A stretch of DNA of 64,000 bases from Gekko japonicus. Its lineage: Eukaryota. The translations under genes and the position numbers were made by a program. The stretch lies in NCBI RefSeq assembly GCF_001447785.1, contig NW_015161963.1, positions 492,885 to 556,884 of the forward strand. The letters run 5' to 3'. This document shows, one piece after another, positions 6,324 to 58,552 of this stretch. Below the pieces are notes generated by a model that was not told the DNA's origin, did not search any database, and worked only from the letters and a program-made list of their open reading frames with translations. Numbering within the stretch: the first letter of the stretch is position 1; each line of letters starts with the position of its first letter.

Positions 6324-6414
6324 CACTTGTTCCACAAAGTCCCAGTTGACCAAGGTATCTGGGTCAGTGAAGTGAATTGTGTAGTCCTGCTCATCACACA
6401 CCACAAACTGGCAG
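6324..6414 (-). CDS. RNF10: RNF10 coding exon 4 (CQFVVCDEQDYTIHFTDPDTLVNWDFVEQV)
   Basis: 91 nt, AG/GT boundaries, protein match. Confidence 0.95.
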
Positions 6415-11627: not shown

Positions 11628-11883
11628 CAGGCCCGTAGCTAACCAGGGGCCCATGGGGCCCGGCCCCCTGGTGATTTTAATGGGCCCCCTTCCCAATACT
11701 TGGCAAACTAATTTATGTGGCAGCTCTCTCTCTAATTTATTGCTCTCTCACAACTTTAATGGCAGTAGCTCACAAAGTAGAAGTTTTGCTCACAAAACTC
11801 CACAGCTTAGAGGGAACATTGGTGGTGGGCCCCCTGAGAAAAACATGAGCCCCCTGAGCAAAAGGTTGTTAGCTACGGGCCTG
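11628..11883. mobile_element. hAT MITE carrying an internal fragment of a second MITE family
   Basis: TIR CAGGCCCGTAGCTAAC / GTTAGCTACGGGCCTG. Perfect 8-bp TSD CTATTAAG. Confidence 0.9.
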
Positions 11884-12811
11884 CTATTAAGTCTAAAACA
11901 GGAGAGTATCATGACTAAATACACTCCACTTTCATACCAAAAACACTTCCTTGAACTGACTTTAAGTAAAGCAACTAACATGGAGAATGTTATTAGGTTC
12001 CTTTACAATCCATATTAGATGCTTTATGTAACTTAAAATTCCCACCCAAGAAAAATTCTGTAGGTAAAGCTTTCACAGCCATGACATAAACTCCAGACCA
12101 TCAAAAATCATCACCCTTCCACCCAATCATTTGCACCACCAACTGTAGAGATTAGGGCTCTTACTCACATCCCTTAGAAACTAAAAGCAGCACATGCTCC
12201 ACCCAAAGCCTCCTATCACTAACATACATGCTGCAGTAGCACCATCCATGTTATTATTCAGCACAATTATCCAACTACGCAGCATCTACTTGAGTTACAA
12301 TTCTAGCTTATATGCAAAGTATCTCCACAGGAGTGTCAGGGCTGCCTGCCACAGGCACACTCTGTCCATAGCCAGCACAACCCTCAAGCATATAATGAGC
12401 AAACAATACAAGAAGAGTCCTGCTGGATCAGATCAGTGGTCCACATAGTTCAGCCTCTTAGTGGTCAATCAGCTACCCTGGAGGACCAACAAACAGCAGA
12501 AAGAGGTCAAAGCTTTCCTTGGTGTTGCCTCCTGAGACTGGTTTTCAGAGGTTTACTGCCTCTGAATGTGAAGGTGTGCCTCTGAATGTGAAGGACCTGT
12601 CCTCCATGAATCTGTCTAAGCCCTTTTAAACGCCTCCTTCCTCGAGATGTCTAATCCTATTTAAAAATATATGGCCAAGCAAGAAACCATCGCAGACTTC
12701 GAGGGGAGGGGTATAATTTCACTAAGTTATATGACAAAACTGTGTTTCCTTCGACTTTCCTCCGTTCCGAAACACCTCTTGCAAAAGCGGGCAGGCTCTC
12801 CAGTCGCTTAC

Positions 12812-12989
12812 CGCCTTTGGGCTTTGACTCTCCCCCGGCCGGTCCGGCCGAGTTAGAGCGGGGCTGCTGCCCTTTGCCTCCCGCCGCCGAAGAACCGGGG
12901 CCGAGGTTGGAGCCGCAGGGGTTGCTCTTGTCCATCCCGTCGTCGGTGAGAGCCGATGCTGCTACTTGCGCGGGGGAACGCCGGAGCAT
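12812..12989 (-). CDS. RNF10: RNF10 coding exon 1 (MLRRSPAQVAASALTDDGMDKSNPCG...GKGQQPRSNSAGPAGGESKPKG)
   Basis: ATG at 12989, with a second in-frame Met at 12935. GTAAGC donor in phase 1 joins exon 2. Matches RNF10 KGQQP.S.SAGPAGESKPK. Confidence 0.9.
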
Positions 12990-13127
12990 CCACGGGCGCC
13001 GCGGGGGCGCTACTACTGCGGGAGGAAGAAAGGAGGCGGCGGCGGTGGCTGAGGCCAAAGCCCAGGCTCATGGCCCGGCAGCGGGGTCGGCGCAGCTCAG
13101 GAGTCTCGGCCACCTTCATGGCGACAT
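12853..13127 (-). promoter_or_regulatory. RNF10 5' leader uORFs: uORF1 M-S-P-stop (13127-13116) and an overlapping out-of-frame uORF (ATGs 13119 and 13071, stop 12855-12853)
   Basis: Read directly from the minus strand. No other ATG between ~13400 and 13127. Confidence 0.7.
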
Positions 13128-14196
13128 CTTCCTTACAGCTTCACCCTGACAAGAGGAAGAAAAAGGCCTCACCCGTCCAGTTACAGCCTCGCCTGCCGCC
13201 GAGCACGGCCGGGCCTGCGGGGCCCCGGGACCGAGGAACGGCGGAGGGGGGGACGAGGGAGCCCCGCAGGACCAGGCCGGCCCGGCGTTGACCCCGGCCT
13301 AAACGGGCTCGGAGCAGAAGTGCCGCCCAAGGGAACCCTCCCTCGGGCCGCCTCAGTACGACTGCCGACGCCTCAATACTACCGCAGCCCCGTAATGGCG
13401 ACGAGTCGCCGACAGCAGTGCCCCACAAAGGACCCGGATGAGTGTATTTCTACAAGGACTCGGGGGAGGCGGGGCCAACCTTGCCCTCACAGCATGCCGG
13501 GTGTTGTTGTGCTTTTCCTTCTAGTTTGGACGGATTATGAGCAAGAGAAAACTACGGCTCCCAGCGTACTTTGTAGCAAGGCTCGCCTCCGCTTTGATGT
13601 AAACATTGACTTTCTACAGCTGCAGATATAAATGGCAATGTTATAGGAGGGTCAAACCAAAGTGCTTCCTCCGCCCTTCCCTTTTCTTTTGTAGAGCTGC
13701 CACATCGCCCCATGGGAGTTGTAGTTAAGTACTGCTTACTTGTTTCGAGGTGTAAACCAACGGTTGTGGAGGAGAATCTTCCTTCTTTTGAACTTCTCTG
13801 CTATAATAACGTATTTATATAGCACGTTCTATTTTGAAGGCGCTTCACGCACATTATTTATTTATTGGCTTACACTATTTATAGTTCACCATCTTCATCA
13901 CTGAGACTCAAGGCGGGTACAACAGTTCTGTTAGGAAGGTCAGGATTATTTTCCCTACCTCGCAGGTGGTGGACTGAGGCTTCCCCTGCAGAGTTACTCC
14001 AGTCTAAACCCACAGAAATTATAGACTGGAGTAACTCTGGATATGATTGCACTGTAAGCAATTTACCTATGGTCACCAAGTAAGTTCGTGGCAGAGGTAA
14101 TATTTTAATTCTGGGCTTCATGATTCATAGTTCTAGACACCACATTCTTGCAAACTTGCAAGTGACGTTGAGGCAGAACTCTTGAGTTCTGGCTTA

Positions 14197-15012
14197 GGCC
14201 CCGGTCACACGGGCAGGAAACTGTGGGGGGGGAGCATGGCAGTTTGCCCCGGGGCAAACTACTGTGCGGTAAAGTGATCAGACCTCCCGTGGAGGTACCG
14301 TGGAGGTTGATCGCATGACCAGGGGTCTTGTAGAAAAAGAGCTGCCGGAGCTCATTAGCATAACTCATTAGCATAACTTATTTGCATATGCCACGCCCCC
14401 TGACATCACCGGAAGTGACAGAAGGCCACACCCCCTGACATCACCGGAAGTGTGTCAGAAGGCCCGGCTACTTACCCTCCTGCTTCATCCTCATTCCCAA
14501 ACGGAATGAGGATCGAAGCAGAGGGCGGGGTAAAGAAGGGGGCGGGGCTTCACCACGTGACCGCCCCGCCCCCTAGAGGTTCTCTTCCGGAGCTCCGTAC
14601 CTGAGAGCTCCCCCCCGACTAGAGCCCTGCGCATGACAATCCCACGCGCAAAAAAGAAGCGCGCGGTGCGGCAAACTGGATTTTTTTTTTCGTGTACACC
14701 GCGACTGCGCATGCTCCATTGGGTGCTTGTGCGCATCCACGGAGACTTGGAAAAAAACACACCTTTTTTGCAAGGGGACATGGGTGGGCACCGGATGCCT
14801 CCGGAAACGCGATCAGACGCCTGCCCTTGCCCCGCAGTTTTCGGAAACTAGTACCTCCGAGGTACTAGTTTTTTGCTGCGTGTTTTCGGCGGGAAGCCTC
14901 GGTTGCGTCACGGAAGTGCTACGCTTCCCAGATGTGCTGGTGAGATCGCCCCCAGAAACTCCGCTTGACTTCCATCGCTCTAGCGTGGCTAATGCTCCGT
15001 GTGACCGCAGCC
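14197..15012. mobile_element. CpG-rich non-autonomous DNA element, PIF/Harbinger-like TIRs, composite interior
   Basis: TIRs GGCCCCGGTCACACGG vs GGCTGCGGTCACACGG (reverse complement; 14/16). Left flank TTA, right flank AAA, so the TSD is imperfect. Confidence 0.55.
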
Positions 15013-16264: not shown

Positions 16265-18764
16265 CATAAGAACATAAGAACATAAGAGATGCCAATGTTG
16301 GATCAGGCCAAAGGCCCATCCAGTCCAACACTCTGTATCACACAGTGGCCAGAAATACCAGTGCCATCAGGAGGTCCACCAGTGGGGCCAGGACATTAGA
16401 AGCCCTCCCACTGTTGACCCCCCCAAGCACCAAGATGACAGAGCATCACTTGCCCCAGAGGCCCTATCTATACCTTGTGGCTAATAGCCACTGATGGACC
16501 TCTGCTCCATATGCTTATCTAATTCCCTTTTGGAGCCGTCCATGCTTGTAGCCGCCACCACTTCCTGTGGCAGTGAATTCCAAGTGTTAATCACTCTTTG
16601 GGTGAAAAAGTACTTCCTTTTATCCGTTCTAACCCGACTGCTCAGCAATTTCATGGAGTGCCCACGAGTTCTTGTATTGTGAGAAAGGGAGAAAAGTACC
16701 TCTTTCTCTACCTGCTCTTTCCCATGCATAATCTTATAAACCTCAATCATGTCACCCCTCAGTCGTCGTTTCTCCAAGCTAAAGAGACCTAAGCTCCTTA
16801 ACCTTTCCTCATAGGGAAAGTGTTCCAACTCTTTTATCATTCGAGTTGCCCTTTTCTGCACTTTTTCCAAAGCTATAATATCCTTTTTAAGGTGTGGTGA
16901 CCAGAACTGCACAGAGTATTCCAAATGAGGTGTTAAAAAGCAGTGGACCAAGTACTGATCCCTGTGGTACCCCACTGCTTACACCCCTCCACTGGGAGAA
17001 CTGCCCATTTATACTCACTCTCTGTTTTCTATTAATTAGCCAGTTTTTGATCCATAAAAGGACTTGTCCTTTTATCCCATGATTTTTGAGCTTGCTTAGG
17101 AGCCTTTGATGAGGAACTTTATCAAAAGCTTTCTGGAAGTCAAGGTAAACAATATCTATTGGATCCCCCTTGTCCACATGTTTGTTCACCCCCTCAAAGA
17201 ACATTAACAGGTTAGTGAGACAAGATCTTCCCTTACAGAACCCATGTTGAGTCTGCCTCAATAGGTTTTGTTCATCTATGTGCCTACTAATTCTTTCCTT
17301 AATAATGGTTTCCACCAATTTACCCGGTATCGACGTCAGACTGACAGGCCTGTAATTTCCCGGATCTCCTCTGGAACCCTTTTTAAAGATGGGAGTGACA
17401 TTAGCTACCTTCCAGTCCTCAGGAATGGAGGCTGATTTTAAGGAGAGATTACATATTTTTGTCAGGAGATCCACAAGTTCACAATTGAGTTCTTTCAGAA
17501 CTCTTGGATGTATGCCATCTGGGCCTGGTGATTTATCAGTTTTTAAGTTGTTTATCAGTTTTAGGACCTCCTCTCTCGTCACCTCAATCTGACTCAGGTC
17601 TTTCAACACCCCTCCCGAACTCAGCGGCTCTGGAGTGGGCAAGCACCTCTCATCTTCCACAGTGAAGACGGAGGCAAAAAATGCATTTAGCTTCTCAGCC
17701 ATTTCCCTATCATCCTTCAGTACTCCTTTTACCCCTTGGTCATCCAAGGGCCCCACTGCCTCCCTGGCTGGTTTCCTGTTTCTAATGTATTTGAAGAAAG
17801 TTTTATTGTTGGTCTTTACATTTTTTGCTATATGCTCCTCATATTCCCTTTTTGCATGCCTGACCACAGACTTGCATTTTATTTGCCATAGCCTGTGTTC
17901 TGTTTTATCAGCCTCACTGTGACTAGCTTTCCACCGCTTAAAGGAATCCTTTTTACCTTTTACAGCTTCCATTACTTTGTTTGTTAACCATGTAGGCTTT
18001 TTCTTATACCTGTTTGTGCCTTTCCTAACCTGCGGAATATATTTTATTTGAGCTTCTAGAATTGTAGTTTTAAACAGTTTCCAAGCTTCCCCAATGGTTT
18101 TGACCCTTTCTACTTTTCCCTTCAGTTTCCTCCCCACATGTCCCCTCATATCAGAAAAATTACCCCTTTTAAAGTTAAAAGTGGTTGTGTGAGTCTTTTT
18201 GGCCAATTCCCTATTTGTACAAATGTTGAACTCAACAACATTATGATCACGGTCCCCAAGCGGTGCAATCACTTTTACATCTCTCACCAGGTCTTGAGTG
18301 TTACTTAGGACCAAATCAAGGATCGCCTCTCTCCTGATAGGTTTCGTGACCATCTGCTCCATAGCACAGTCATTTAGAATGTCTAGAAACTCAATCTCTT
18401 TTTCTCGACTAGAACACATATTGACCCAATCAATGTGTGGGTAGTTAAAATCACCTATTACGACACAGTGTTTTTGTCTAGCTGCTATCTTTAATTCATT
18501 CATCATTTTATAATCCTCCTCTATCTTTTGATCTGGTGGGCGATAACAAACTCCCAGTGTTAAGTTTCCTTTTGGCCCCCCTATTTCAACCCACAGAACT
18601 TCCAGAAGCGAATCCAATTCTCTTAACCTCTCAATCTTTCTGGACTTCATACCCTCTCTGACATACAGAGCCACCCCACCTCCAACCCTTCCCCCCCATC
18701 CTTCCGATATAATATATAACAGGGAATCACCGTATCCCACTGATTTTCCTCATCCCACCAAGTC
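16265..18764 (-). mobile_element. CR1 LINE, 5'-truncated, ORF2 (C-terminal part of endonuclease plus RT) with an internal deletion
   Basis: 617-aa ORF with GDFNYP, KSPGPDG, NYRPVSLTS, YLDFQKAFDKVPH, GVPQGSVLGP. C-terminal LEKRRLRGD...FFTQRVINTWNSLP. (TTATGTTC)n 3' tail. Confidence 0.96.
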
Positions 18765-20285: not shown

Positions 20286-20792
20286 CAATGTTCCCCCTAA
20301 GCTGAATTAGTGTAAAGTAGCTCACAGTTTTTAGCCTGAGGCTCACACATTTTTGTCTTAGCTCAGGAAGGATGGCACCAGAGCAAACTAATTTATGCAG
20401 TCGCGAAATCGTTCGCTCACAATTTTAATCCCGCAAAGTTAAGAGTCCAATGGCACCTTTAAGACCAACGAATTTTTATTCAAGATGTGAGCTATCATAG
20501 TTGTACATATATAGGGGTGACTTGTTAAAATTAAAGAATGACAAGCTCGGTTTCTGGTTATCATCTGTCGCAGTTCAACTGGGGTGGGGGAAACATAGGT
20601 GATAAATATGTTAGAACTGGAGATTGAGGTGTCCTAATTTGTGGTTTGTTGGTCTTAAAGGTGCCATTGGACTCTAACTTTGTTGTATTGCTTCAGAGCA
20701 ACACGGCTGCCCACCTGAATCTAACTTTAATACCAGTAGCTCAGAAAGTAGAATTTTTGCTCACAAGACTCTACATCTTAGAGGGAGTATTG
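20286..20792. mobile_element. hAT MITE (CAGTGTTCCCTCTAAG family) interrupted by a Penelope-like fragment (~20431-20722)
   Basis: Both MITE halves match the copies at 37016 and 47854. The insert has inverted GAGTCCAATGGCACCTTTAAGACCAAC arms. Confidence 0.8.
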
Positions 20793-24181: not shown

Positions 24182-25390
24182 GTGAGTGTGAATACTAATA
24201 GTTGAAATAAAAAGAGCACTGCTGGATCAGACCAAACTCCATCTAGTTCAGTATTTTGTTTCCAGCAGTTGCCAGACAGATACCCTTGGCAGTTTAATGA
24301 TGCTAGTATTCTCGTTGTTTTTCCTAGTATGTGCTATGAAGAGGTATATTGTTTCTTACCTCAGAGGTTCCATTTAGCTACTAGGGCTTCTGTTGCTAAA
24401 TGACAGTAATAGATAGCGCTGTATTAAATGAAGAAGGAAGATGGATGGATGCACAGTTTGGAAAACAGGTAGACCAAAGATTTCTTCTGCTTGTAGGGTA
24501 ACCTGCATGCTGCAACATACTGGCATTTTGCTTCCACCAACCCTATTTCTTAAAAAAAGTGGTAGTCATTCTGATACTCTGCGAAGACAGCAGGTATATG
24601 CTAGTCAGAAATTCTTAAAGCTAGCCCAAGGATATAGTAAACTGATTAAAATTTGTCCCAAAACATTCATATTATGAGCTCAGAATGAAATCATGTGAAG
24701 TTTTATAGCAGTGTAGTAATGGTTAAGAACCACTGTAGCCCATCAGCTATACCACATCAACGAATGCTAACCAATGCAATTTTTTAAAACCAACCTAAAA
24801 ACAGCACTGCAGACAATATTAATAAAGATTATATTCTTTATATACACATATATTGGCATCCCTAACATGGTGCCCACAGATACCTTTGCTGGTGCTCACC
24901 AAGTATTTTGAGAAAGTGGATATATCAGATAGGGCTTTTGCCCAGCAGGGCTTCTATTGGTCATCGGAGATCCGGCTGGCTGTGCAGATTTCTAAAAACA
25001 TTGCTTTAGCAGCAGCTGTCAGCACAGTACAAGGATCTTTACTCTAAAACAGTATGTTGAAGAGTTACTGTTAGTTATACATACACTCCCTGACATTGTA
25101 TGGTTGGCTCTGCCTTCTGTGGCAGCCATTTTGTGGTTGCACCCACTATCCTGTATCAGATTTTCCAAAGGTGCCTACAGGCTCAAAAAGTTTTGGGGCC
25201 CCTGCACTATGCTGATCTTTTATAGATAATTCAGTAAGACCCTGGTGCCTGATGCTGTTAGCTAATTCTTTAATGCTTGGTTTCGGGGCCCATAGCCAGG
25301 GGGGGGGGTTGTTCAGGGGGCAGTTAAATTGTAGTTCATTAGTTGTTGTAGATTTTCCGGGCTGCGTAGCCATGGTCTCGGCACTGTAGA

Positions 25391-25433
25391 GCCTGATGTT
25401 TCGCCAGCACCTGTGACTGGCATCTTCAGAGGC
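25391..25433 (-). ncRNA. Minimal type I hammerhead ribozyme motif in a Penelope-like repeat (~25336-25468), with stem III mutated
   Basis: GCCT-CTGAAGA-T-GCCAG(loop)CTGGC-GAAAC-ATC-AGGC. Confidence 0.65.
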
Positions 25434-25974
25434 ATAACACAGAAAGATGGAGTACTCTCTGTGTCATGGTGAGTCTTTCAAAAGCATTCCCATGAGGCTT
25501 TGAGAAACATGCAGTTAAAGGCCCTCTGAGCTGTCTTTCCCTGTGTCCCATGATGCCCCCCCCCCCAATTCCACAGTGGGAACGAGAGGGAAACCTGAGG
25601 GAAACCCACGGTGCTCTCACCCTAGGCGCTGCTAGCAGCAGGAAGTGGGGGTTTCTTCTCAAAAATAAGGTTTGGGGCATGGCTATTTGTGGGGCCACTG
25701 TAGCTATGGGCCTGCTTGGTTTGATACCTGTTTGCTGTGTGCCATTCTGTAAGGGCCTTGAAGAGAATTCTGGGATTTTATCTTCAGAGTGGATGAGTAT
25801 TATAAACCTCCTCCTCCCCAAAAAAACCCTCTCCTCCACTGACTTGTTAGATGCTGTTACAAGAGGCTGCCTAAAATTCTAAATGCTCCCTGGGGGAAAG
25901 GCAGCCTTCATCAGGTCCCAGTTAAGAATCGCTGTTATAGAACAAACCTCCTGTGCTTGTCTATCTTGTTTTAG

Positions 25975-33423: not shown

Positions 33424-33681
<258 letters not shown>

Positions 33682-35721: not shown

Positions 35722-35990
35722 CGTGTGCTGCTGGGCTGCTTCAGAGGACTGCGGGAAGGGATGTTGGTGGAGCGAACGGGCAGGTTGGCAACTCCGCGTT
35801 CCTCCGGCTCCCCGTCGCGTAACGAACTGAGGAGGCGCGCGCGGACACCCGCCCTACACTCCCTCGCCCGCGACAAGCTCTGCCAACCGGGCCACGCCCT
35901 CTCGCCTCCGCTGCCGGCGCCACGCCCACTCCTTCCCCGGCAACAGTCATTGGCTACGACAACAATACTCCTTGCAGCCTATTGGCTCTT
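35722..35990 (-). promoter_or_regulatory. DYNLL1 non-coding exon 1 (~35828-35722, CG|GTGAGG donor) and promoter with Inr-like TCAGTT, GC boxes and two CCAAT boxes 32 bp apart (35949-35953, 35981-35985)
   Basis: CpG island; motifs read directly. TSS position is inferred. Confidence 0.65.
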
Positions 35991-36423
35991 CTCTCTCCGC
36001 CTCCCGTAGAGTTTTATTGTTGCATTTTATTGCAGTCCAGCATGCACCGCAACGGCGTCCGTTGCTATGGTTGGAAGGGGCTGGGCGGGAGACTTCCTGA
36101 GGGCTTGGGAGGGATGCTGAGCTTCGAAATATTTCCGGTTTGGTTGGAGGTTGGCGGGTGTTTATGCGGTACCTACAGAATGTACCAGGGTCGGCCCAAG
36201 AGAAAATTTGCGTCCTTTTAAATCTCACGAAAGGTTTTATACCGTGTATAAAACTTCGTTGGTCTAAAAGGAGCCACTGGACTCGAATTTTGTTTTTTAA
36301 ATTTCAGGATCCGTAGGCAAGTGCCGAGTAGTACTTTTATAAATAACATTTTTACCCTGCCTTCACGGAGCTCAGGCTTTACCCAACCTATTTTACAGTC
36401 AAAACCACCTTGTGAGTAAAAAG

Positions 36424-36628
36424 ATTGGTTGTTGTAGATTTTCCAGGCTGTATGACTGTGGTCTTGGCATTGACACAGAGAGTACTCCCATCAAGAATTG
36501 ACACAGAGAGTACGCCATCTTTCTGTGTTATACCTCTGAGGATGCCAGTCACCAGCTGCTGGCGAAACGTCAGGTCCTACAATGCCAAGACCACGGCCAT
36601 ACAGCCTGGAAAATCTACAACAACCAAT
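36424..36628 (+). mobile_element. Penelope-like pseudo-LTR fragment with an inverted partial copy (49-bp arms 36424-36472 and 36580-36628)
   Basis: Inverted arms seen directly, hammerhead core inside, second copy at ~25336-25468. Confidence 0.75.
36532..36575 (+). ncRNA. Minimal type I hammerhead ribozyme motif (dimer type), predicted cleavage after C36571
   Basis: ACCT-CTGAGGA-T-GCCAG(TCACCAGCTG)CTGGC-GAAAC-GTC-AGGT: stem I 4 bp, stem II 5 bp, loopless palindromic stem III (ACGT), GUC triplet. Confidence 0.78.
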
Positions 36629-37015
36629 GAATTCCGGAGGTAAAAGACTTCACATAAAAAACTTTTTTAAAAAAACCCTAACCCCTACCAGCAGAGAAGG
36701 GATACACAGAATTCCCCAAGTCCAATTCAAACTTTATAACTAGTATAGTAAGCTAGCAGTGCCTCCTAAACAGAATGACACCTTAATCTTTCAATTGAGT
36801 TAGAAGGGTATCACTCTGCTTTGAAATGTACTGTAAACTTCCAAGTAAGTGCAGTCACTATGTGAAGAGTAGTTCCTATAGCTGCTTTGGATGCTGGTAT
36901 CCTGCATCTTCCACTGTGCGTAGGGTGGTGGTGGTGGTGGACTTATGCAGTGAACCTACTGCAGAGAAGGAGCACAAGTTGCTCTGCTGGGCCTCTGGAA
37001 GATATGCACATGCAC

Positions 37016-37221
37016 CAATGTTCCCTCTAAGCTGTGGAGTCCCGTGAGCAAAAATTCCACTTTGTGAGCTACTGGCATTAAAGTTCTGAGCAAGTGATTT
37101 AGCTACTGCATCAATTAGTTTGCTCTGGAGCCATCCTTCCTGAGCTAAAACAAAAATGTGTGATCTGGAGGCTAAAAAACTGTGAGCTAGCTCACACTAA
37201 CTCAGCTTAGAGGGAACACTG
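37016..37221. mobile_element. hAT MITE (CAGTGTTCCCTCTAAGCTG family)
   Basis: 19-bp TIRs, perfect 8-bp TSD ACATGCAC. Confidence 0.92.
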
Positions 37222-37565: not shown

Positions 37566-38730
37566 TAGGGATGCCAACCTCCAGGTGGGACCTGAGGATC
37601 CCCCAGCATTACAGTTCATCTCCAGACTACAGAGATCAGTTCTCTTGGAGAAAATGGATGCTTTGGAGGGTAGAATGTATGCCACTGTACCCCATTTAGC
37701 TTTCTGTCAATCCCAAGCTCCACCCCCAAGTCTTCAGGAATTTCTCAGCCAGGATCTTGCAACCCTACCCTCCCATCCCCTGTCGGGGGCGGCGGGGGCT
37801 GGCAACCCTATGTAAGAAGGATTCTCTGTTTGATTTTCATACTTCTCTGAAGAAGTGAGTGGTGACTTATGAAAGGTCAGATAGAAATTAATGTTGTTAG
37901 CGTTTTCGGTGCCACTGGACTTTTGTTTTATCATGGAGCTAGAGGCAACATATGTTGGATTTCCTGGAGGTCTTTTATTTGACCAGACAACAAGGTTGCT
38001 GCACAAACCTTACCCCCTCTTAAACCCTTTGACTAGGGTTGACAACTCTAGCTTGGGAATATTCTGGTGATTTGGGGGTAATGTCTGGGATGGGCAGAGC
38101 TTGGGGAGGGGAGGAAGCTTAATGGGAATGTGGTGGGGTTGCCAACCTTCAGGTAGAGGCTGGAGGTCCAGACAATAAAGATCAGTTCCCCTGGATAAAA
38201 TGGCTGCTTTGGAAGGTGGACTCGTTGGCATTATACTCTGCTGAGGCTTTTCCCCAGACTCCACCCCCAAATCTCCAGGTATTTTGCAAAAGGGAGTTGG
38301 CAGCACTAGTCATGGTTGGTCAAAGGTCAGTTCCTTCAACGCCTTCCCTTTCTGTGAAGTCAATTCCTCCCAAATTAAATCCTTAAATTTTAATTTCTTA
38401 TCTCATAGGACAATCGAACTCTCAGCATTGTCTTCAGTTTTCTTCTCAGTCTTAATGAGAAAAATCTAGTCTGAAGACTGGAAAGACATCCTGTCCCTCT
38501 CTTAATTCCCAACAAGCTTCTTCCCAACAAACATTAGTGTAGAGTTGCCAACCTCTTGGTGGGGCCTGGTGATCTCCCACAATTAGAACTGATCTCTAGA
38601 CTACATAGATTAGTTCTCCTGAAGAAAATGACTGCTTTGTAGGGTGGACTCTGTGGCATTGTAAACCGATGAAGACTCTCCACTCTCCAGGACCCACTAC
38701 TAAATCCCCAAGAAATTCCCAACCCAGAGT
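37566..38730. mobile_element. Cluster of older TAGGGTTGCCA-ended (hAT Blackjack-like) MITEs at ~37566-37810, ~38034-38308 and ~38540-38730, with a Penelope-like remnant at ~37844-37930
   Basis: Degenerate TIRs, shared GATCAGTTCCCCTGGAGAAAATGGCTGCTTTG-like core, no intact TSDs. Confidence 0.65.
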
Positions 38731-39894
38731 TTTCTTTACAGGGGGTAATGATATATCAGTTTCTCATAGTCTCTGTGGTATACCACAAGATACACGGAAG
38801 TCCTAGAACATCTACTCTCTGTAGCTGCTCTAGGACTTCAATTTCTCTCAGAAGCTGGTTCCTCCTGGTAAACTGATCTTTATAGTTTGGAGATCAGTTT
38901 TAACCAGTCTGACTTCTTCAGTTGTGATGGGGTCTCCAGAATTTTGAGGGCAGCAAGAAAGCAGGATGGATCCTGGGCAGCACAGGAATAGGTGTGTGCC
39001 TTTCTGGTTTGCAAGTGCTGCCAGGATCACTTCAAGGAAGGCTATGCAGGCACTTCCTGCCTTGGATGGATCTCAGGTTACACAACAGAAGAAGGATGCT
39101 TTCTTTGCTGCCACCCATCCAGATCTATCCAAGATGCACTGCCAAGGAACTCCTTCTGCCTTGGATGATCCTGGGCAGCATGAGAGGAGTAAACATAAGA
39201 AGGCAGCTAAACTGTTGACAGGGGTTAAGCATCTTAGAAGCATTACCCTAAATTTAAGAGAGTTTCCCTGGTTTACAATTTGCTTCTATGTTCAACTCAA
39301 GGTGCTGGAATTAACTTCTAAAGCATTTCATTACCTGGTTGAGACCCTTGTGTCTGTGGGACCATCTCCACCCATATGTGCCCTCAAGGCAGCTCCAACC
39401 ATCAGATCAGATTATTAGTAGTTTCTCCACTCAAATAAGTGAGACTGCAGTTATCTACTTGGGTGCTGGCATTCTTGGCGGCAACTCCTGAGTTACCGAC
39501 AGGCTTTCTGAGGATGTGAGGAAAGTCCCAACTTGACAGACATTTCAGAGGTTCTGTAAAGTAAAGCTTTTCCACTGTACTTTTGATCGTTTGTGAGAGG
39601 AGGTTACAGTCTGCTTCTTTTAAGGTATATTTCTTTTGAAGTGAGATTGTAGTCAGTGTTAATTTAAACCACATTTAAATCCATTTACTTTTAATTTGCA
39701 GCCACACCCTCATTGACAAGGTTAGGTAATTGTCAGCAATACACATTTCAGAACTGAGTCTGTTACTGTGTATTTCCACCACAAAGATTGTTAGACAAAG
39801 TGGCTGGCTAATGATTCAAAACCAGGACCACAGATTGCCACTACCTTATAAAGACATGTGGTGGCAGCAGAGAACAAGAGGTACTTGAAGTAAA

Positions 39895-39990
39895 GAGAAC
39901 AAAGTTTGAATTCAGTGGCACCTTTAAGACCAACAAAGTTTAATTCAAGGTATAACTTTCATGTGCAAGCACACTTCTTCAGATACAGAC
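39895..39990 (-). mobile_element. Penelope-like pseudo-LTR remnant with a degenerate hammerhead core
   Basis: CAGTGGCACCTTTAAGACCAAC motif. Minus strand reads GTAT-CTGAAGA-A-GTGTGC TT GCACAT-GAAAGTT-ATAC. Confidence 0.65.
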
Positions 39991-40916
39991 AACAGAATCT
40001 CTTCAGACATTACATATAGGGGGTGGGGGGTGGTTGTCAGGAGGACCAGTTAGAGTCAAGATGTATAAGAACTGGGTGATTGTAGCTGAGATTGAATTCA
40101 GGCAAGATTAGTATGCAAATACAAATGTTAATATGTAGATGTAAGAATGATGTTTGAGTCCAGTGGCACCAGCAAGGCAGACAAAGCTCAATACTGGGTA
40201 CGAGCGAGAACTCCTTCGATTCAATGAAACAGATTTCCTCAGATATAACAGGTGTGCGTGGGGGATTTCAGCCATGAAGATGTGAATTGGTTCTTACAGC
40301 AAGTCTGCATGCTAACTGGAATTCTCTGCTGAAGGTTCAGGATTTCATGCTGCAACTATTGAGTGAGGTCCGGCTGCTGTAGAAAATCTTGTAAATATAG
40401 ATCCTACATGACTGTGTGTCAGACTCAGGCCTTTTGAATGGCTATACCTGATGTATTTCAACCGAGTGTAGTCAAAACTGTTATGTTTCTACCCAACATA
40501 ATCATGCCCTGTGTATCCCGTCTACTCCCTGCTCCTAACCATTTGATCTTCTTTGTGGTCTCTGTGCATCACACCCATGGGATTATGCGCCTGTATTGAT
40601 CCGAATCGGTGGTATACAAAGCTCACAACGGGATTTTCGCGCCTCCCTCACTGCGCATGCTCAAAGAGGTGGGGAGGTGACACCCTGCCAGTTCTCTTCT
40701 GACCGCCGCGCTGTTAACAGCTTGTTTCTGCCGGTCGGTGAAGAAGCATTTGTTTATCTCACAAGGGATTTCTAAATCCGTTTTTCTTAACTTTAAAGAC
40801 TTTTTAAAAAATTGAGGGTCGCCGTTACCTCACAGCTTCCCACCCCCCCACCCCGAGGTAAATTTTCTTCACCTCACCTGAGGGCTCCTTTCTTTTTGTG
40901 CCGTTCTGTATTTTTT

Positions 40917-43190
40917 ATGGCCAAAAAGTGGGGGTGTTTTAAACGGTGTGTCGGCTGCGGCAGTAAACTTGCCCTCAGTGACAGCCACACACTGTGTATT
41001 CTCTGCCTTGGAGAAACCCATCGTCTGGAGACTTGTCGCCAGTGCTTGAAGTTCTCCAATCCGACCCATAAAAACAGGGCCACGAGACTTTGGGTGGCAC
41101 TTTGGGAGTCCGCATTGGCTCCGTTGCTGGGCAAAAAGATGTCTGCTGAGACCCCATCAGACTCTTAACCGACGGCGCCTCCATCAACATCGGATGACAC
41201 TTCGACATCAGTCCCACTGCACCATTCTAAATTGGCATCCGATGTGGGGCTGTCTTCATCCAAATGCTCAGCTATGAACGAGGCTTCCTCCTGCCTCAAC
41301 GCTCGCTAAGAAAAAGAAGAGGGATAAGCACAATACAGAGAAGTCTCTGAAGTCTTATCTTAAAAAGACCGCGCATAAGTCTCACGATCAGAGTGGCGTT
41401 GGCGTGCAAATGGGCTCTGCATTACCCCCTCCTACGCGGGCGCAACCCAATATCGATAACCCTCCTGTGCTCGAGCTGCCTGGGATGCAACAACTACCTC
41501 CAACTGAGATGCTGGACTCGCCCATTTGGCAGCCAAACCCCCCAGTATCGGAGGTCTCTATGGACACTAGACCCATTTCCAGAGTTGATTAGGTCATCCC
41601 ACACCGATCTCAGAGAGATCGTTCTCCGTCAGCATCATCGTGGGCTAGCGATCGATCTAGACCGGACTCTTGTTACCATTGTACTCGATCTAGATCCCCT
41701 CGGCATGGGGAACATCGATATCGATCAGAGGAGTGTTCTGAATACGGTTGTTCCAGATCCAGGCTCTCCTATTCGCCCAGGCGGGAGTTAAGACCGCACT
41801 CCCTGACCTACTTTGAACCACTTGTCCCGCCTCCGTGGGGCCATCAGCAGCACATGCCTTATTGGTTCAGCTCATATCCAGTCTCGACATCAATGCCATG
41901 GCTGACACCGAGGCAACAGTCGGACTGGGATCGTGGGTCACGTCGTTCACGTTCTCCCCAATGTAAATCCAAGCCTTCCACGTCTCTCTCTAAACCTCCG
42001 GAAGAACCTCATTGCCTGCCCTCTCCTTTCCATTCCGCCCCTGCTTTACCATCGCAGACCACACCGATATTGGACACGACTACCCGAAGGGCTGATGTAT
42101 CCTTGTTACCGACACTGGAGTCGCCTTCCGGATCCTCCAACTCCAATTCTGGTGCTGAGGACTCAGATGGGCCCAGTTCAACAGGGGGTCCTTCACCCAA
42201 GCCTACGGTGTCTGACGACCTTCCGATCTCACCTTCAGAAGACCTTTCTTCATACGGAGATTTGGTCAAAAGAATGGCACATTCCTTAGGGCTGTCGATC
42301 GTCCAACCCCAACCGTAAGTGTCGGACGCTGTCTTCAATGTCGTGCAACTCGACACCTCTACAGCAGTTGCCATCCCCATATCGACCATCCTTCTCCAGG
42401 CAGCAAAGACACCATGGGATAAACCATCCTCTGCCCCTGTGTCTTCCAGGTGCCTGGATCAAATGTACAAGGTCCAGGAGGCGGCGGCTGAATTTCTCCA
42501 CATCCATCCTAGACCAAATTCCATGGTCGTGTCCTCTTCTGCTAAGAGTAAAAATACCCATGCTACACCTTCTGATAAGGAGGGGGGAAAGTTGGATTCA
42601 TTTGGCCAATGTTTTTATTCAGCTGGAGCTCTAGGAATTAAAATGTCGAATTATATTGCTTGCATGGGCCATTATGAATACTTGCGCTTTACCGATCTCT
42701 TGACCTCAGTACCCGATGACAAATGTCAAGAGGCCAGGAAGTTGCAGAAGGAAGGGTTGTTACTTTCTAAGCAAATTATCAATTCTTCCAAACATGCTTT
42801 GGACACGTTCTCCAAGACGATGTCTTCCACAGTTGCCCTCCATAGGCACTCCTGGCTTAGGACCACCTAACTTCCTACCGACACTAGGGCATACATAGAG
42901 GACTTACCTTTTGATGGACAAGGTCTCTTTCATGCTTCGACAGATTCGGCCTTACAAGACATAGACAAGAGCATTAAAGTGTCGTGGTCGTTGGGGGTCT
43001 CTGCCCCTTCTAAACCTTTCAGACCCCGCTCTTGGTCATGTTACAGCTCTAGGCGCCAGTACACTAACCATCACCAGAGGGAGGCTATAGGCCACATCAG
43101 TCCCCTTCTGGGAATAGACAGCAATATCAATCTAGACAACGATATGGCTCTGAACAGCAACATGTCAGACCGAAACCACCCAAACCCACC
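40917..43190 (+). pseudogene. DIRS ORF1 (gag-like) remnant: Cys/His finger FKRCVGC...DSHTLCILCLGETH...CRQC, plus LAP2alpha-like domain (...VALHRHSWL...IEDLPFDG..LF)
   Basis: Motifs typical of vertebrate DIRS ORF1, broken by stops and frameshifts. Confidence 0.8.
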
Positions 43191-43199
43191 AAACAGGAC

Positions 43200-44115
43200 C
43201 TTTGACTTCCGCCTGTCTACCTCTTCCGACTCTACCCGCCTCCATCCCTATCTACATGCCTGGACCACCATTACGTCGGACCAATGGGTCCTTTCCATCT
43301 TGACCAGTGGTTATTCCATCGAATTTCTGGAATTCACACCTCTCCCTGTAGTCATCATCACGCCCCCATCGTCATTCCTCCTCAAAAAAGTTGCCACGCT
43401 TCTATCGAAGGGTGCCATAGAACCTGTGCCTCTAGACCACCAGGGCCTTGGTTTTTATTCCCGGTACTTCATGGTACCCAAAAGGGATGGTAGGCAGAGG
43501 TCGATCTAAGACCTTTGTGGCCTCAACACCTATATACGATACTGGAAATTCAAGATGACATCTGTACTGGTCATTCCACCTCTCCCATGTCCAAGGGTTT
43601 CTAGATGGTCACTCTCAACCTCGAGGATGCCTATTTCCATTTGACCATCCACCCCTCCCATCAAAAATACCTCCAATTTGCGATAGGAGGCAGCCACTAC
43701 CAATACAGGAGTCTACTGTTTGGCCTCAGCACGGCACTGCGGGTCTTCACTAAGATGATGGTGGTTGTTGTGGCTTCTGGTCGCGCCTTCCAGGGCCCTT
43801 CCCATACAGCATGTATCCCAGGCCCTCGATGTCCTTTGTTGCCTTGGTCTCTGGGTCAACCACAAAAAGTCGCAGTTGGTTCCGTCTCAGAGAGTGCAGT
43901 TCATAGGGGCAATACTCGACTCCATGGAAGGCAAAGCTTTCCTGTCCCGGGACAGAGCCCTCACTCTAGCCGCCCTTGCAGAACAGGTTCGGCTACACGA
44001 CACGTCGTCTGCTTTCCACATTCAGCGCCTTCTGGGCCTCATGGCAGCTACGACTGCAGTCCTTCGCTTCGCAAGACTGCAAATGCATCCACTTCAGCTC
44101 TGGTTCCACGAGGTC
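43200..44115 (+). pseudogene. DIRS reverse transcriptase remnant
   Basis: WVLSILTSGYSIEF, GFYSRYFMVPKRDG, LEDAYFH, YQYRSLLFGLSTALRVFTK, LGLWVNHKKS, LLGLMAA. The YxDD segment appears deleted. Confidence 0.88.
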
Positions 44116-44139
44116 CACAAATTCATACTAACAGCTTAT

Positions 44140-44923
44140 TGTGGTAAGAAATATTGAAAGATGGAAGTGTTTGGGTTTAAAATGAACAAAATAGCTTATG
44201 AAATCCACATATGTATATCTGCCTCTGCTCTTGCTAGCAAAACTGGCTTGACCTTTCTTTCACTGATGATGTAACACATTCAAATTGTCAGGAAGTTCCC
44301 AGGGAAGCTCCACAGATGTGAAACTTGCCAATAACCCCAATTTCCCAGGCCATAAAATATATGACCATTTGGGAAATTGGCAGACTCCAACCCGGCTTTC
44401 ATCTCTCTCTGATAACATCAAAACACAGTGTATTTCCCATGATTGGGAAACACCTGGACAACACGCTGTATTGATCCTTTGGAATGTGACCTTTCGTTGT
44501 GTGAGACCAAGGGAGGGAAACCACTTTCCTCAAAGACAAATTCAATTTCTAAGTGTTAAATTTTAACTGCAATCCAATTATTAAGGGATCCCTTTGATCT
44601 CTGGTATAAATATGGGTGGTTCACAACAGACTTCAGCTGAATCCGAAAGGATTCAGTTAGAGAGGGCCTCTCGAGCGCATGCATGGGGTGGGGAAAACTC
44701 TGCTGAATGTTTATTTCTGTGTGTATTCTATCAATGTTTAGGAAACTAGGGACTCTGAATGTTTTTCTATAATAAAGATAAGTTTTATTTTAAGAAGAGA
44801 CTAGTGAATTCCAAGCTTGCACTTCTGCCTTTGGTAAGGGGCAACACTCAGGAGACACACACGAACTGAGGGGGAGGGAATGTGGGTGACATGGGTAAAC
44901 ACGCTTTTACAAACACGTGCCAC
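44140..44923 (+). mobile_element. Probable LTR inserted in the DIRS element
   Basis: Starts TGTGG, ends ...GCCAC at the gap edge (would give CCACA), TATAAA near 44605, AATAAA near 44771. Confidence 0.55.
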
Positions 44924-46369
44924 NNNNNNNNNNNNNNNNNNNNNNNNNNNNNNNNNNNNNNNNNNNNNNNNNNNNNNNNNNNNNNNNNNNNNNNNNNNNN
45001 NNNNNNNNNNNNNNNNNNNNNNNNNNNNNNNNNNNNNNNNNNNNNNNNNNNNNNNNNNNNNNNNNNNNNNNNNNNNNNNNNNNNNNNNNNNNNNNNNNNN
45101 NNNNNNNNNNNNNNNNNNNNNNNNNNNNNNNNNNNNNNNNNNNNNNNNNNNNNNNNNNNNNNNNNNNNNNNNNNNNNNNNNNNNNNNNNNNNNNNNNNNN
45201 NNNNNNNNNNNNNNNNNNNNNNNNNNNNNNNNNNNNNNNNNNNNNNNNNNNNNNNNNNNNNNNNNNNNNNNNNNNNNNNNNNNNNNNNNNNNNNNNNNNN
45301 NNNNNNNNNNNNNNNNNNNNNNNNNNNNNNNNNNNNNNNNNNNNNNNNNNNNNNNNNNNNNNNNNNNNNNNNNNNNNNNNNNNNNNNNNNNNNNNNNNNN
45401 NNNNNNNNNNNNNNNNNNNNNNNNNNNNNNNNNNNNNNNNNNNNNNNNNNNNNNNNNNNNNNNNNNNNNNNNNNNNNNNNNNNNNNNNNNNNNNNNNNNN
45501 NNNNNNNNNNNNNNNNNNNNNNNNNNNNNNNNNNNNNNNNNNNNNNNNNNNNNNNNNNNNNNNNNNNNNNNNNNNNNNNNNNNNNNNNNNNNNNNNNNNN
45601 NNNNNNNNNNNNNNNNNNNGTGTGATGCACAGAGACCACAAAGAAGATAAACGGGTTGCTTACCTGTAACTGGTGATCTTCGAGTGGTCATCTGTGCAGT
45701 CACACCACCCGCCCTTCCTTCCCCACTGCTGTTGCTTCAGTATTTTATCTGGTTATTGACATGACAGCGGTCAGAAGGAACTGGCGGGATGTCTGCGCCC
45801 CACCTCTTTGGGCATGTGCAGTGGGGTACCTGCGCATGCCTGGGAGGGAGGTACGAAAATCCCGTTGTGAGCTTTGTATACCACCAATTCGGATCAGCAC
45901 AGGCACATAATCCCATGGGTGTGACTGCACAGATGACCACTCGAAGATCACCAGTTACTGGTAAGCAACCTGGTTTTTTTATTCTTCGTTCTTATAACTT
46001 GCCCTCGCCTGCCATTGCATTCATGGGGTGCGGGGAGTGCCTGTAGTTTAAGGAGGCCAGCTTTGGTAATTCTTCCCATGGAGCCTCAAGAGACATCGTT
46101 TCACACGGGAGATGTCCTTGAAGTAGAGTCTGTACTTGGCTAGTGATAGACCGTATATCTCTCATGGTCTTTGTAGTAGCGCTGATGTGTATGAATGGAA
46201 TGTTGGGATTGTGACTATATTCTGTTTTCCCGCCTCTGTGCCCCATCCTGACAAAGAGTTTGAACCCATGAACATTTCAAATCTCCAAATAAACTTTTCC
46301 TTATAGAAAGTGTGTGTGGAGACTGATTTGACTGAGAACCTGACACTGTGCTGTGACCTTTATTACACC

Positions 46370-46541
46370 CAGGGCTCTTTAACTCCTTTGCATATTAGGC
46401 CACACATGCCTGATGTAGCCAGTCCTCCAAGAGCTTACAGTAGCCCCTGTAAGAAGAGCTCTGTAAGCTCCTGGAGGATTGACTACACTAGGGGTGTGTG
46501 TCCTAATATGAAAAGGAGCTCCTGCTACAAAAAGAGCCCTG
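46370..46541. mobile_element. Palindromic CAGGGC-ended MITE
   Basis: The whole element folds back (CAGGGCTCTTT...AAAGAGCCCTG). TSD imperfect. Confidence 0.7.
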
Positions 46542-48298: not shown

Positions 48299-48415
48299 AG
48301 GGACCATGGCTCAGTGGTAGACCATCTGTTTGGTGTGCAGAAGGTCCCAGGTTCAATCCCCTGGTATTTCCAGCCGAAATGTCCAGGTAGTAAGTGATGG
48401 GAAAGACCTTCTCAT
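48299..48415 (+). mobile_element. tRNA-derived SINE 5' part. Related copy on the minus strand at ~57960-58135.
   Basis: TGGCTCAGTGGTAGA A box and GGTTCAATCCC B box, followed by non-tRNA sequence. Confidence 0.7.
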
Positions 48416-48715: not shown

Positions 48716-49090
48716 TAGGGCTGCCAAGTCCCCCCGGGGGGGCCGGGATTCCCCCATTAAAAGGGCCCCCAATCCGTCGGTCCAGGTCCGGCCAGTGGGG
48801 GGAACCCCACCGTCGAAGTGGCCAGATCGGGCCGATGTGCCCGGCATGATGTCGTCGCCCATAAGTGATGTCATCACGCTGGGCACGTTCCTGGGCGATG
48901 CTCTAGCAATCACCCTAAAAACTCTATGGTACCATACAGTTTTCAGGCCAGTTGCTAGAGCGTTGCCCGGCGAGGTGCCCAGCGTGATGATGTCACTTCC
49001 AGGCAACATCATTGCAGTGTGCACGCGCGAATGTCCCAGAATGTGACCAACTCTCCCCTGCTTATTTTGGTGAGTCACTTGGCAACCCTA
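48716..49090. mobile_element. Young hAT (Blackjack-like) MITE with internal palindrome
   Basis: TAGGGCTGCCAAGT / ACTTGGCAACCCTA, perfect TSD TTACTGAT, CpG-rich. Confidence 0.93.
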
Positions 49091-50429: not shown

Positions 50430-51070
50430 AATTCCAGAAGATTAGCCATGTTATTCTAGTGCAGCAAAAACAAGGAAGTGGCACTTCAAAAACTGATTGC
50501 TTGCGTCACAAACTTTTATGGTGCTGAGCCCACTTCATCTGATGTATGAAGGATTGTCCTCTGTTGGCAGAGTTGTTTACAGATCGGGGGGATTGTAAAG
50601 AGGGGGGCAAAAGGGCCAGGAAATGCAACAAGCATAGCTGATGCAAAGCTCAGGTGTGTAGAAGAAATGCCGAATTAACCTTCATAACAGCAGAAACCGG
50701 TGATTACACAATCTTCCAATAATTGCTATACTAATTTAACACCTGTAGCAGGAGGGGGGTAACATAACAAAGCTGGAAAGACTATGTCATCACCAATTAC
50801 TTCTGTTGCTAAGACAGAAAGAAATCTAGTGATACCTTCAAAACCAGCAGAAGCTTTTATGGACTGGATCACTCTTCGTCAGATGTATAACATCGGTCCT
50901 CAGTTGGCAGATATATATCCATAGTAATTAAGGAAAAAATGTAAACATGTGAAGCCAAAAGGCAATGACATGCAAGAGATAAAATGAAATAAAAGTCCAG
51001 TGGCACCTAAATAAATAACATTTATTTCCATGTGAGTTTTGGTGAGTCTCAGCTCACCTCTTCAGATATG
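50430..51070 (-). mobile_element. Three successive decayed Penelope-like pseudo-LTR fragments
   Basis: Repeated GTGGCAC...CTTT...CACTTC.TCAGAT pattern at ~50480, ~50830 and ~51000. Hammerhead cores are broken. Confidence 0.55.
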
Positions 51071-52662
51071 TAACGGGAAGATAATACTGGGAATTCTTCT
51101 TTATGGAGATTACAAGGGGATGATGTAAAATTTAATGTACACCATCACATGCCAACAATGCTCTTCTACTATCTACCCTGGACAGATGTGGTGGTCTCAG
51201 CATTAGAAAATCGATTAAAACAAATAGGACATTAACAATCACAACATTTAGGAACCAGTGGGGGAACATTTTATCTCCCTGAACATATTTATTATAGACC
51301 TGAAAGTCACTGTTGTACAAACCCCCCCCCCCAATTTACAATTTCTAAGTGCTGAATTGGAACTGATCAAGAAACTAAATACTACATATCATCCTGGCTT
51401 AAACCGAGTCTTGGATTCCTTCACTTAAACTTTAGAATGGATCTCCTTGACTAGTTATTTACCCTATTTAACCTATTTAATCACTAGGTGTATCTGTTTG
51501 AACCTCTGACCTCTCATCATCCATTATGTTCAACTGCTAATTCTGTTAATTTATGATGGAATTCACACCTAACCTTTCTACTGCAACTCCTCCCCTTTCC
51601 CCCTGACACAGAGAATTTACTCTTGAAGGATTTGTGATGGAATTCACACAGGACTCTCTCTGCCTCAACTCCCTTCACATATCTGAAGAAGTTAGCTGTG
51701 CAGGAGTGGATGGGGAAAGAAAAATGGCCCTTCTCCAAAAGAGAAAGGTGGGGAGCACTAGCTGGACTTTACCAAGCCTGTTCCATGCACAGTGCATGGC
51801 TTTGCCGGCCCGAGCACCCTCCTCCATGTGTGACCAGGTTGGGTAATCTCTTCTGCATATGGCAAACAGCCATGCGAGGCACCCTCCTCCAGCCAGGCCT
51901 GCAGCTTGGCTGGGTCATGTGCCCTCTCTTCCCCATGCCCAAAGAAGGGAGAACTAGCCAGCAGTCAGTCTTCTGATGAGGACTGCTGGCTCAACAGCTG
52001 CAGATGTGCACCTTGCATGGGGTGAGGGTTGCCCCTCAGCTGGGGCTGGTGGAAGGCTCTGGTGGGATGACCTGGTACCCAGGCCAATAACCAACCAGGA
52101 TCAATAATCCACAACAGCGGTAACAGGTGATAAATTAATAATGGGCAAGAAATGCCTGGTCTTGGTGAAGACAATCAAATTTCCTGATAAATTATAATTC
52201 AGCATTTTTATGATGGACTTTACTTATGAACTTTCAAGAAAAGTGAATTCAGGTCAGAAAACAAATGTCCTGGTAGACTTTCTCCCACTAGTTTCTGAAT
52301 AACTCCATGTTTTATGTAAAATTTATCATCAGTTCCAGCAATCAGTAGTGTCTTTCAAATAAATTGGGCTGCTGGTAGTACAGAGCAGAAAGATAGAGCA
52401 TCTGTAGCCAGACTTCCCCCTACTGTGATCGTGCCAGTGCCTGAAATTAGGGGCATCCAGGGTTGCTTTGTCTGTATATATTGGGAAGCATACTAGTCAC
52501 TGTGCTTATAAGAAAACAGCAGCTGTGCTGGATCAGATCAGTAGACCACCTAGTGCAACAACATCCTTCATGCAGTGTTCCTTTAATGCCCCCAGAAGGA
52601 ATTAAAATAGGGTAGGGAGAGGCCCAAGTGTGCATATATTATCCCAAATGTAGCGGCTCCAT

Positions 52663-53028
52663 TAGGCTTGCCAAGTCCCTCCGGGGGGCGGGGAAACCCC
52701 CGCCCGAGAGACCTGTTACCCGCTGGCGGCGGATCGGGCCCCGGGGAGAACCCCACCCCCAAAGCACGTGACATGCCCGGCGTCAGCACGTCGCCCGGAA
52801 GTGACACAATCACGTCGGGCATGTTGGGGGCGGGGCCACAATCATCCGAGGGAAAACTCTATGGTTTTCCCTCGGATGATTGTGGCCCCGCCCCCAACGT
52901 GCCCGACGTGATTGCGTCACTTCCGGGTGACGTAATTGTGGTGCGCATGCGCAAAGCGCATGCACATAGACTCCCTGAACAAGACTGGACTCCCCCGCTC
53001 TGCAACAGGTAAGGACTTGGCAACCCTA
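52663..53028. mobile_element. Young hAT (Blackjack-like) MITE with a 64-bp-arm internal palindrome
   Basis: TIRs, perfect TSD GGCTCCAT, arms 52794-52857 and 52864-52927. Confidence 0.93.
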
Positions 53029-57620: not shown

Positions 57621-58552
57621 GGAATGGCCCCCAAGCTTCCTGCAAGTGGAAAACTAGACAAAAAAGGATGTGTGAGGGGGATTTTTTTCTCACAAAAATC
57701 TGTTGTGCCAGATGATTTTTAAGAGCAGGATCTTTCACAAAGAATTTCTTGTCTGAAGCCGTAGAAACCCACGCCAAGAGCCATTTCTCCTGCACATGTG
57801 AATTAGGCCTAATATTTACAAATTATACATAGGTTGTATATATTGCTCTAGAATGCTTGAAGAGCATTGCAGACGCTTGTAATCCTTATAGCAACTCTTT
57901 TAGAGTAGGCTAGTATGACTCTTAAGTTCCCAGGCATCATGTCTGAAGTTGTCTTGCACTGAATCAGACCCTTGGTCTATCAGGGTCAGTATTGTCTACT
58001 CAGACTGGCAGCAGCTCTCCAGGGTGACAAGTTCACATTACCTACTACCTGATCTTTAACTGGAGATGCCAGGGGTTGAACCTGGAACCTTCTGCATGCC
58101 AGACAAGAAGATGCTCTAACAATGAGCCATGACCTTTCCCCATATCCTTGGAAGTTTCATGATGCAGTCACCTTGTTAAAGCTAAGCAAATCTGGGTATA
58201 GAAAATACTTTGATAGGAAGACATCTTGGGGACCCTCTCCCCTCATGAGAGCCATCTTGAGTTCCATGAAAGAAAGACCCCACAAACCCATGTAAGAAAC
58301 AGAAAGTGTTCGTTGGCCACTGAAACAGGATGTTAGAGTCCTTGGACTGTGGTCTGGTCAGCAGCCACTTTTCTTATAAAATATTGGGCTGAGACTGATA
58401 GAACAGTAGCTTGCCTAAGTCTACCTAATGAGTTCATGGCAGAAGTGAGTTGTGAACCAGAGATTCCCTGATCTGGAGTACCTGTTACACTGCACAAGCA
58501 TTCAGGTGTGTACATGGTATGGAAAATCATATTGTGGACCCCTAATCTTTGA

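Follow-up and report, generated by a model that had tools for sequence, protein, structure and literature searches.

Minimal hammerheads of Penelope-like elements

Minimal hammerhead ribozymes (min-HHRs) are carried by the Penelope-like elements (PLEs) of metazoans, and some vertebrate genomes contain thousands of them (Cervera and de la Pena 2014; PMC4209133). In that survey, they are presented mostly as lone, dispersed motifs of truncated elements, reptiles included, and their listed traits comprise a base left unpaired between 9 and 10.1, a G10.1-C11.1 pair and a palindromic 15.2-16.2 segment; in the experiments described there, single motifs gave no cleavage in vitro and dimers showed low activity (PMC4209133). 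PLE insertions are described as having an inverted, 5'-truncated copy adjoining the 5' end and a one-sided tail of 30-40 bp (Craig et al.; PMC8557442). Among individual elements, PAc (Poseidon_Ac) is a PLE of the Penelope/Poseidon clade from Anolis carolinensis (Frangieh et al. 2024; PMC11167929). The ORF of PAc opens where stem II starts, the hammerhead cuts 26 bp past the start codon, and reverse transcription starts within the ORF at two tail-defining sites, one of them at +111-118 (PMC11167929). In that study, the PAc motif cut only once protein was added, insertion in vitro was independent of cleavage, and a cluster of read ends at the cut site was not found (PMC11167929). Non-LTR retrozymes, as described, are tandemly arrayed and contain two or more units with a hammerhead (Li et al. 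2026, bioRxiv 10.64898/2026.07.22.740005). Whether the minimal hammerheads of PLEs cut in living cells is treated as a question still open in the field (PMC8557442, PMC11167929).

The feature at 36424-36651 of the window (the whole stretch of 64,000 nucleotides analysed here) is real and of ordinary origin, a tidy example of this well-described insertion layout. It is very probably a short insertion of the end of a high-copy Penelope/Poseidon-type element, likely produced in a single round of target-primed reverse transcription, with a likely neutral effect on the adjacent gene DYNLL1, and the hammerhead and inverted ends likely arrived with it. With PAc, as described, the locus shares a hammerhead at the pLTR-ORF junction, a putative start codon where stem II begins, with a predicted cut ~26 nt further on, ends near ORF +110, an AC-rich end region and AT-rich flanks (PMC11167929). 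In contrast to PAc, it is a ~230-nt non-coding fragment of a different family in a different host, lacks a reverse transcriptase (RT) or endonuclease, has a somewhat shorter tail and carries an inverted arm and a junction duplication. The motif itself, with its short helix I, longer helix II, unpaired 9/10.1 base and absent loop 3, is no different from the min-HHRs of PLEs as they are described, though here it is enclosed by an inverted arm (PMC4209133). The locus resembles the Non-LTR retrozymes, as outlined in their report, in being non-coding, PLE-derived, intergenic and furnished with a type I hammerhead, but unlike them it has one hammerhead and no tandem unit (Li et al. 2026). PAc geometry is independently echoed here in another host, with the start codon inside the hammerhead and ends near ORF +85 and +110.

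The hammerhead motif and its predicted fold

Descriptor and pattern searches of the window identified a minimal type I hammerhead motif at 36532-36575 on the plus strand, with the following parts:

36532-36535/36572-36575 (+): stem I, 4 bp
36536-36542 (+): CUGAGGA box of the hammerhead core
36543 (+): unpaired U between the core box and stem II
36544-36549/36558-36563 (+): stem II, 6 bp (5 Watson-Crick pairs and U-G)
36564-36567 (+): GAAA box of the hammerhead core
36567-36570 (+): stem III, palindromic ACGU with no loop 3
after C36571, i.e. between 36571 and 36572 (+): predicted cut

The hammerhead pattern at these positions is not due to chance. A strict pattern matched once in the window against 0.02 matches expected (2 of 100 shuffles gave one), and a looser descriptor found three motifs against a shuffled mean of 0.01, a number reached in none of 200 shuffles; the third of these motifs belongs to another family. 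A preliminary description of this DNA had pointed out the CUGAGGA and GAAA cores, stem I, the GUC cleavage triplet and the loopless palindromic stem III, all of which were recovered at the same coordinates. Its stem II (GCCAG/CUGGC) holds for the five Watson-Crick pairs but falls one short of the total, which is six with U-G. It had also called the motif near-intact on account of one extra U. This base, U36543, is present, but an unpaired base at 9/10.1 is conserved in the PLE minimal hammerheads described, and the extra U is therefore no defect (PMC4209133). The motif is canonical and undamaged, and U36543 belongs to the family consensus for this hammerhead type. The CUGANGA and GAAA boxes, the UH triplet, a helix I of 4-5 bp and a helix II of >4 bp are all in place, as are U36543 (9/10.1), the G36544-C36563 pair (G10.1-C11.1) and ACGU 36567-36570 (palindromic 15.2-16.2). 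Together with kinship to PAc, these traits bear out the earlier reading of a minimal type I hammerhead from a PLE. Loop II is one base longer here than in the other common variant of the family.

Rfam hammerhead models, whose use the preliminary description had proposed, gave no match at gathering score in the window and none at E up to 10 within 36300-36750. Three weak matches to Rfam models (E 4.7-8) were dismissed as chance. With no model match and no loop 3, the motif falls outside the canonical type I class that these models describe, in which stem III is capped; the miss probably reflects the absent stem III loop.

Self-cutting of the 36532-36575 motif is a prediction from its structure. 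In a nearest-neighbour model, which has no tertiary or dimer terms, the hammerhead-ready fold lies 5.7 kcal/mol above the ensemble. The pairing probability of stem I is <=0.03 when the motif is folded within the 205-nt RNA 36424-36628, where the 5' strand of stem I is taken up in pairing with the piece duplicated at the inversion junction; the stem is thus predicted to be mostly sequestered in the hairpin context. Cofolding gave a different dimer, formed via loop II, by a method that cannot score dimer topology. Cleavage by dimers is reportedly the subject of a paper by Lunse et al.

Insertion layout, repeat family and origin

The hammerhead lies within a larger arrangement, whose parts, together with a second copy and the corresponding site in a relative, are as follows:

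36424-36472 (-): inverted, 5'-truncated, tail-less copy of 36580-36628, forming the left arm of the hairpin
36469-36496 (+): 28-nt local duplication of the inversion junction, comprising the start of the forward copy and a few filler bases
36498-36651 (+): forward, 5'-truncated end of a probable Penelope/Poseidon-type element, with pLTR end, hammerhead, the first ~110 nt of the ORF and tail
36542-36544 (+): candidate start codon (AUG) of the parent ORF, located where stem II begins and containing the 'extra' U36543
36629-36651 (+): tail end; 5 of the 32 contig pieces listed end at 36650-36651
25335-25466 (-): second family copy, 3' of DYNLL1 (88% over 133 nt, E 4.5e-43)
36417-36688 (no strand assigned): interval in whose place a single organism D contig, joining 36416 to 36689, has 28 other bases

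The near-perfect inverted arms reported in the preliminary description (36424-36472 and 36580-36628) were confirmed as 49 nt each and 96% complementary, differing at 2 of 49 positions, 36595/36457 (G-U in RNA) and 36597/36455 (a mismatch). The 205-nt RNA that they delimit folds at -118.6 kcal/mol (z = -17), with none of 200 shuffles as stable. That description had overlooked where the hairpin comes from, namely the inverted, 5'-truncated copy known from these elements, as well as the dispersed, high-copy nature of the motif, which is apparent from the second copy at 25335-25466 and from the sequencing depth of the family.

The locus combines a 5' truncation, an inverted truncated copy at the 5' end and a tail at one end, as in described PLE insertions. 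Family reads and contigs share a consensus that carries on 5' of 36498, and they appear as loose ends at this position; the forward fragment has only ~37 codons. The AUG at 36542-36544 likely initiated the ORF of the parent element. The family contigs mostly stop at 36621-36631, while some reach 36650-36651, the latter corresponding to ORF +110. In one DNA run (X2), the bin 36634-36663 has a depth of 17,427 against 34-46 on the flanks, a sum for a bin that borders the high-depth part. The tail extends 23 nt past the arm and ~29 nt past the end cluster at 36622, hence 23-29 nt, compared to the 30-40 bp described for PLE insertions (PMC8557442).

The junction preserves further detail. The only local direct repeat at the locus comprises 20 nt at 28-nt spacing, and TTG is common to the 36469-36496 duplication and the end of the inverted arm. 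The duplication retains the T that is in the majority in the family, whereas the forward copy has G at 36514. Both arms carry identical minority letters at 36607 and 36625, which suggests that one template and one event gave rise to both.

Assignment to a family draws on the comparison with PAc. Aligned by eye with the PAc template (Fig. S1B of PMC11167929), 36592-36625 is identical at 27 of 34 bases without gaps. The predicted cut lies 27 nt past the last base of the AUG, or 26 in a common variant that lacks base 36552 (180 of 489, 10 of 26 and 62 of 178 RNA reads in three runs). Kinship to PAc is expressed in the AUG at stem II, in a spacing that is PAc-like under one way of counting and in this 27/34 identity. 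On these sequence grounds, 36424-36651 can with high confidence be considered Penelope/Poseidon-type. The protein searches linked no RT or GIY-YIG domain directly to the family. A homology search with a 43-residue translation of the second copy listed three candidates, none of them scored, which weighs little, and a Pfam scan of 25 of the 71 long ORFs in the window detected an AP-endonuclease/RT LINE as its sole result and no GIY-YIG domain. When phmmer was run with the same translation against representative sequences, its five matches were repetitive proteins (6-9 summed stretches), none with RT or GIY-YIG, and were rejected as chance.

The second copy, 11 kb away, has right-arm sequence only, with no inverted arm and no tail. 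Its outer stem I pair is changed on both sides, from A-U to G-C, and its stem III palindrome is broken. Unlike it, the 36498-36651 copy retains every core base, which was counted against reading it as a plain remnant. Summed DNA-contig depth, which does not equate to copy number, reaches 2.3 million over the element in one run (X1), where the flank has 73 (~30,000-fold), and 4.0 million against 34-46 in X2. Four DNA runs from four organisms yielded 3,783-14,502 contigs per run on a 900-nt stretch that also contains a second repeat. Since thousands of contigs were found in all four runs, the family is large and predates the split of the four organisms; many thousands of copies genome-wide are likely. 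The second copy, the depth ratios and the presence or absence of the insert at the orthologous site are together those of a dispersed, multicopy mobile family.

At this orthologous site, one contig from organism D, at flank depth (78.1) and with 35 nt on its shorter side, joins 36416 to 36689, from which it follows that the insert is absent there. The edges of this empty site are uncertain, given the 35-nt short side and the 28 unrelated bases, and D may have undergone a later deletion. A contig from organism B covers 36330-36454, crossing from the left flank into 31 nt of the inverted arm, and the left junction is therefore common to B. These observations, one contig each, fit a lineage-specific insertion. 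In organism C, none of the contigs listed clearly bridges a junction; X2 has no contig cover at 36334-36393 and is uninformative on this point. The flanks are A/T-rich. No target-site duplication was seen, and the empty site of D differs by 28 bases.

We infer an order of events in which an element protein would have nicked the AT-rich DNA upstream of DYNLL1, and element RNA would have been copied from internal start sites just within the ORF. A tailed cDNA would have begun at ~36651 and run back through the hammerhead to 36498, while a second, tail-less cDNA of 49 nt, begun at 36628, may have been joined to it head-to-head via TTG microhomology to give the hairpin; the 28-nt duplication would have been created at the inversion junction. 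The hammerhead is the standard pLTR motif; in the parent element, cutting is predicted to require a dimer or the element protein, and for this lone, apparently untranscribed copy cutting would be rare if it occurs at all.

In a variant of this explanation, the 3' product of hammerhead cleavage was the template from which the inverted arm was copied as cDNA, and the arm would so record cutting in the cell. The arm ends at the equivalent of 36580, close to the start of that product at 36572, but this leaves it 8 nt short, and the TTG microhomology at the stop is sufficient to explain the junction. The forward copy from the same template runs without a break across the cut site, in the experiments described PAc inserted in vitro without need of cleavage (PMC11167929), and a pile-up of ends is undemonstrable from one locus. 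The variant is consequently judged unlikely. Across thousands of family copies, the inner ends of inverted arms could address in-cell cutting from DNA alone.

DYNLL1, transcription and neighbouring repeats

The gene adjacent to the insertion is DYNLL1, on the minus strand, in which 43 of 44 residues are identical to the best PDB match, dynein light chain 1; PDB chains of DYNLL2 score below this match. Two of its parts are relevant here:

35722-35863 (-): exon 1 (non-coding) and start region, from RNA depth and read ends at 35853 and 35863
33544-33675 (-): first coding stretch, 44 codons, from the PDB match

Splicing is supported by 43 reads joined to exon 2 and by loose ends at 35720 that match the start of exon 2. 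The start of DYNLL1 is ~560 nt from the first arm and ~710 nt from the predicted cut site, and the motif lies on the divergent strand, in agreement with the earlier placement of the motif ~700 bp from the transcription start in divergent orientation.

From this placement, the preliminary description proposed that promoter-divergent RNA might self-cleave or form dsRNA. Under such co-option, the DYNLL1 promoter would give rise to an unstable divergent transcript that crosses the insertion and is cut by the hammerhead or forms dsRNA, with an effect on DYNLL1. Orientation and distance fit, the core bases are all intact, the arms differ at only two positions and the left junction is common to organism B. 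However, RNA depth between promoter and element (35924-36423, 500 nt) is <=0.21 in all three runs, compared to 38, 235 and 67 on exon 1, and depth over 36724-36923 is <=0.02 in all three; in effect these libraries do not resolve strands, the reads used make up 3-12% of each run, and RNA that is unstable and non-polyadenylated would escape them. The same three standard runs, a data type poor at showing such ends, contain no cluster of read ends at 36571, the position at which the preliminary description had suggested looking for them. Reads do cover the element, and 493 of 536, 20 of 21 and 189 of 215 of them have T at 36514, as is usual for the family; since this copy has G at that position, most of them come from other copies. 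A-to-G differences in RNA on the element were considered as editing and rejected, as they are also present in DNA contigs (36617).

Further considerations weigh against co-option. The organism D contig lacks the insert, and the model predicts a largely sequestered stem I and an unfavourable hammerhead-ready fold. In the published experiments, lone motifs were uncut in vitro (PMC4209133) and the PAc motif needed protein (PMC11167929). Moreover, with two family copies and three descriptor motifs in 64 kb, a copy near a promoter is expected by chance. A transcript linking the element to DYNLL1, and with it a regulatory role, is unsupported, and co-option is regarded as highly improbable. The same very low probability attaches to its fuller form, in which a lineage-specific Penelope insertion would serve as a ribozyme-plus-dsRNA module that ends or marks the unstable divergent RNA of a housekeeping promoter and so tunes DYNLL1. 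If true, this reading would amount to host use of a PLE ribozyme. In the literature searched, use of a PLE minimal hammerhead in host regulation is not described; nothing was found that links DYNLL1 to a hammerhead, and only general reviews on promoter-linked, co-opted hammerheads.

That the arms are MITE-like terminal inverted repeats, or two independent head-to-head insertions, is scarcely credible. A near-perfect inverted repeat of 49 bp that encloses a short core does resemble a MITE, but the second copy has right-arm sequence only, family contigs end variably (36621-36651) and continue 5' of 36498 with different shared sequence, minority letters are common to both arms, and the sequence of the arm is matched by the start of the PAc ORF.

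The window also contains a second group of related repeat ends, at 39890-39990 (-), 37840-37930 (+), 36237-36294 (+), 20434-20484 (-), 20645-20684 (+), 50984-51072 (-) and 40144-40200 (-). Some members carry a minimal hammerhead, complete at 39982 (-) and decayed at 37847, and the group likely represents another Penelope-like family or families. The piece at 36213-36294, 130 nt from the hairpin, carries an old inverted arm of its own, and four DNA runs show it at high copy. The inverted pair 20442-20472/20645-20675 (31 nt, 97%) consists of two truncated ends of the second group in a layout like that of 36424-36628. The repeat at 37016-37221 has DNA and RNA depth above that of 36424-36651, inverted ends of 19 nt at 95% and a sharp end at 37221.

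Other repeats are of different kinds. The interval 16890-18749 (-) is a 620-codon open frame in which Pfam identifies AP-endonuclease and RT domains, a LINE fragment, and tRNA-like matches at 48300-48372 (+; 40.8 bits) and 58061-58134 (-; 29.5 bits) are possibly the heads of tRNA-derived SINEs. At 40537-45983 lies an element of ~5.4 kb whose inverted ends measure 81 nt (93%), 49 nt and 38 nt; it also contains a 66-nt internal inverted repeat close to the right end, broken ORFs that are GC-rich and a gap in the assembly. Its layout resembles that of DIRS-type retrotransposons, though Pfam gave no supporting match. Near-palindromes are present at 52788-52933 (70 nt at 96% with a 6-nt spacer, a stronger hairpin than 36424-36628), 48849-49012 (82 nt at 76%) and 46383-46518 (58 nt at 84%). 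Closer to the gene, an inverted pair of 22 nt (35080-35101/36175-36196; 95%), 1,073 nt apart, flanks the CpG island of the DYNLL1 promoter.
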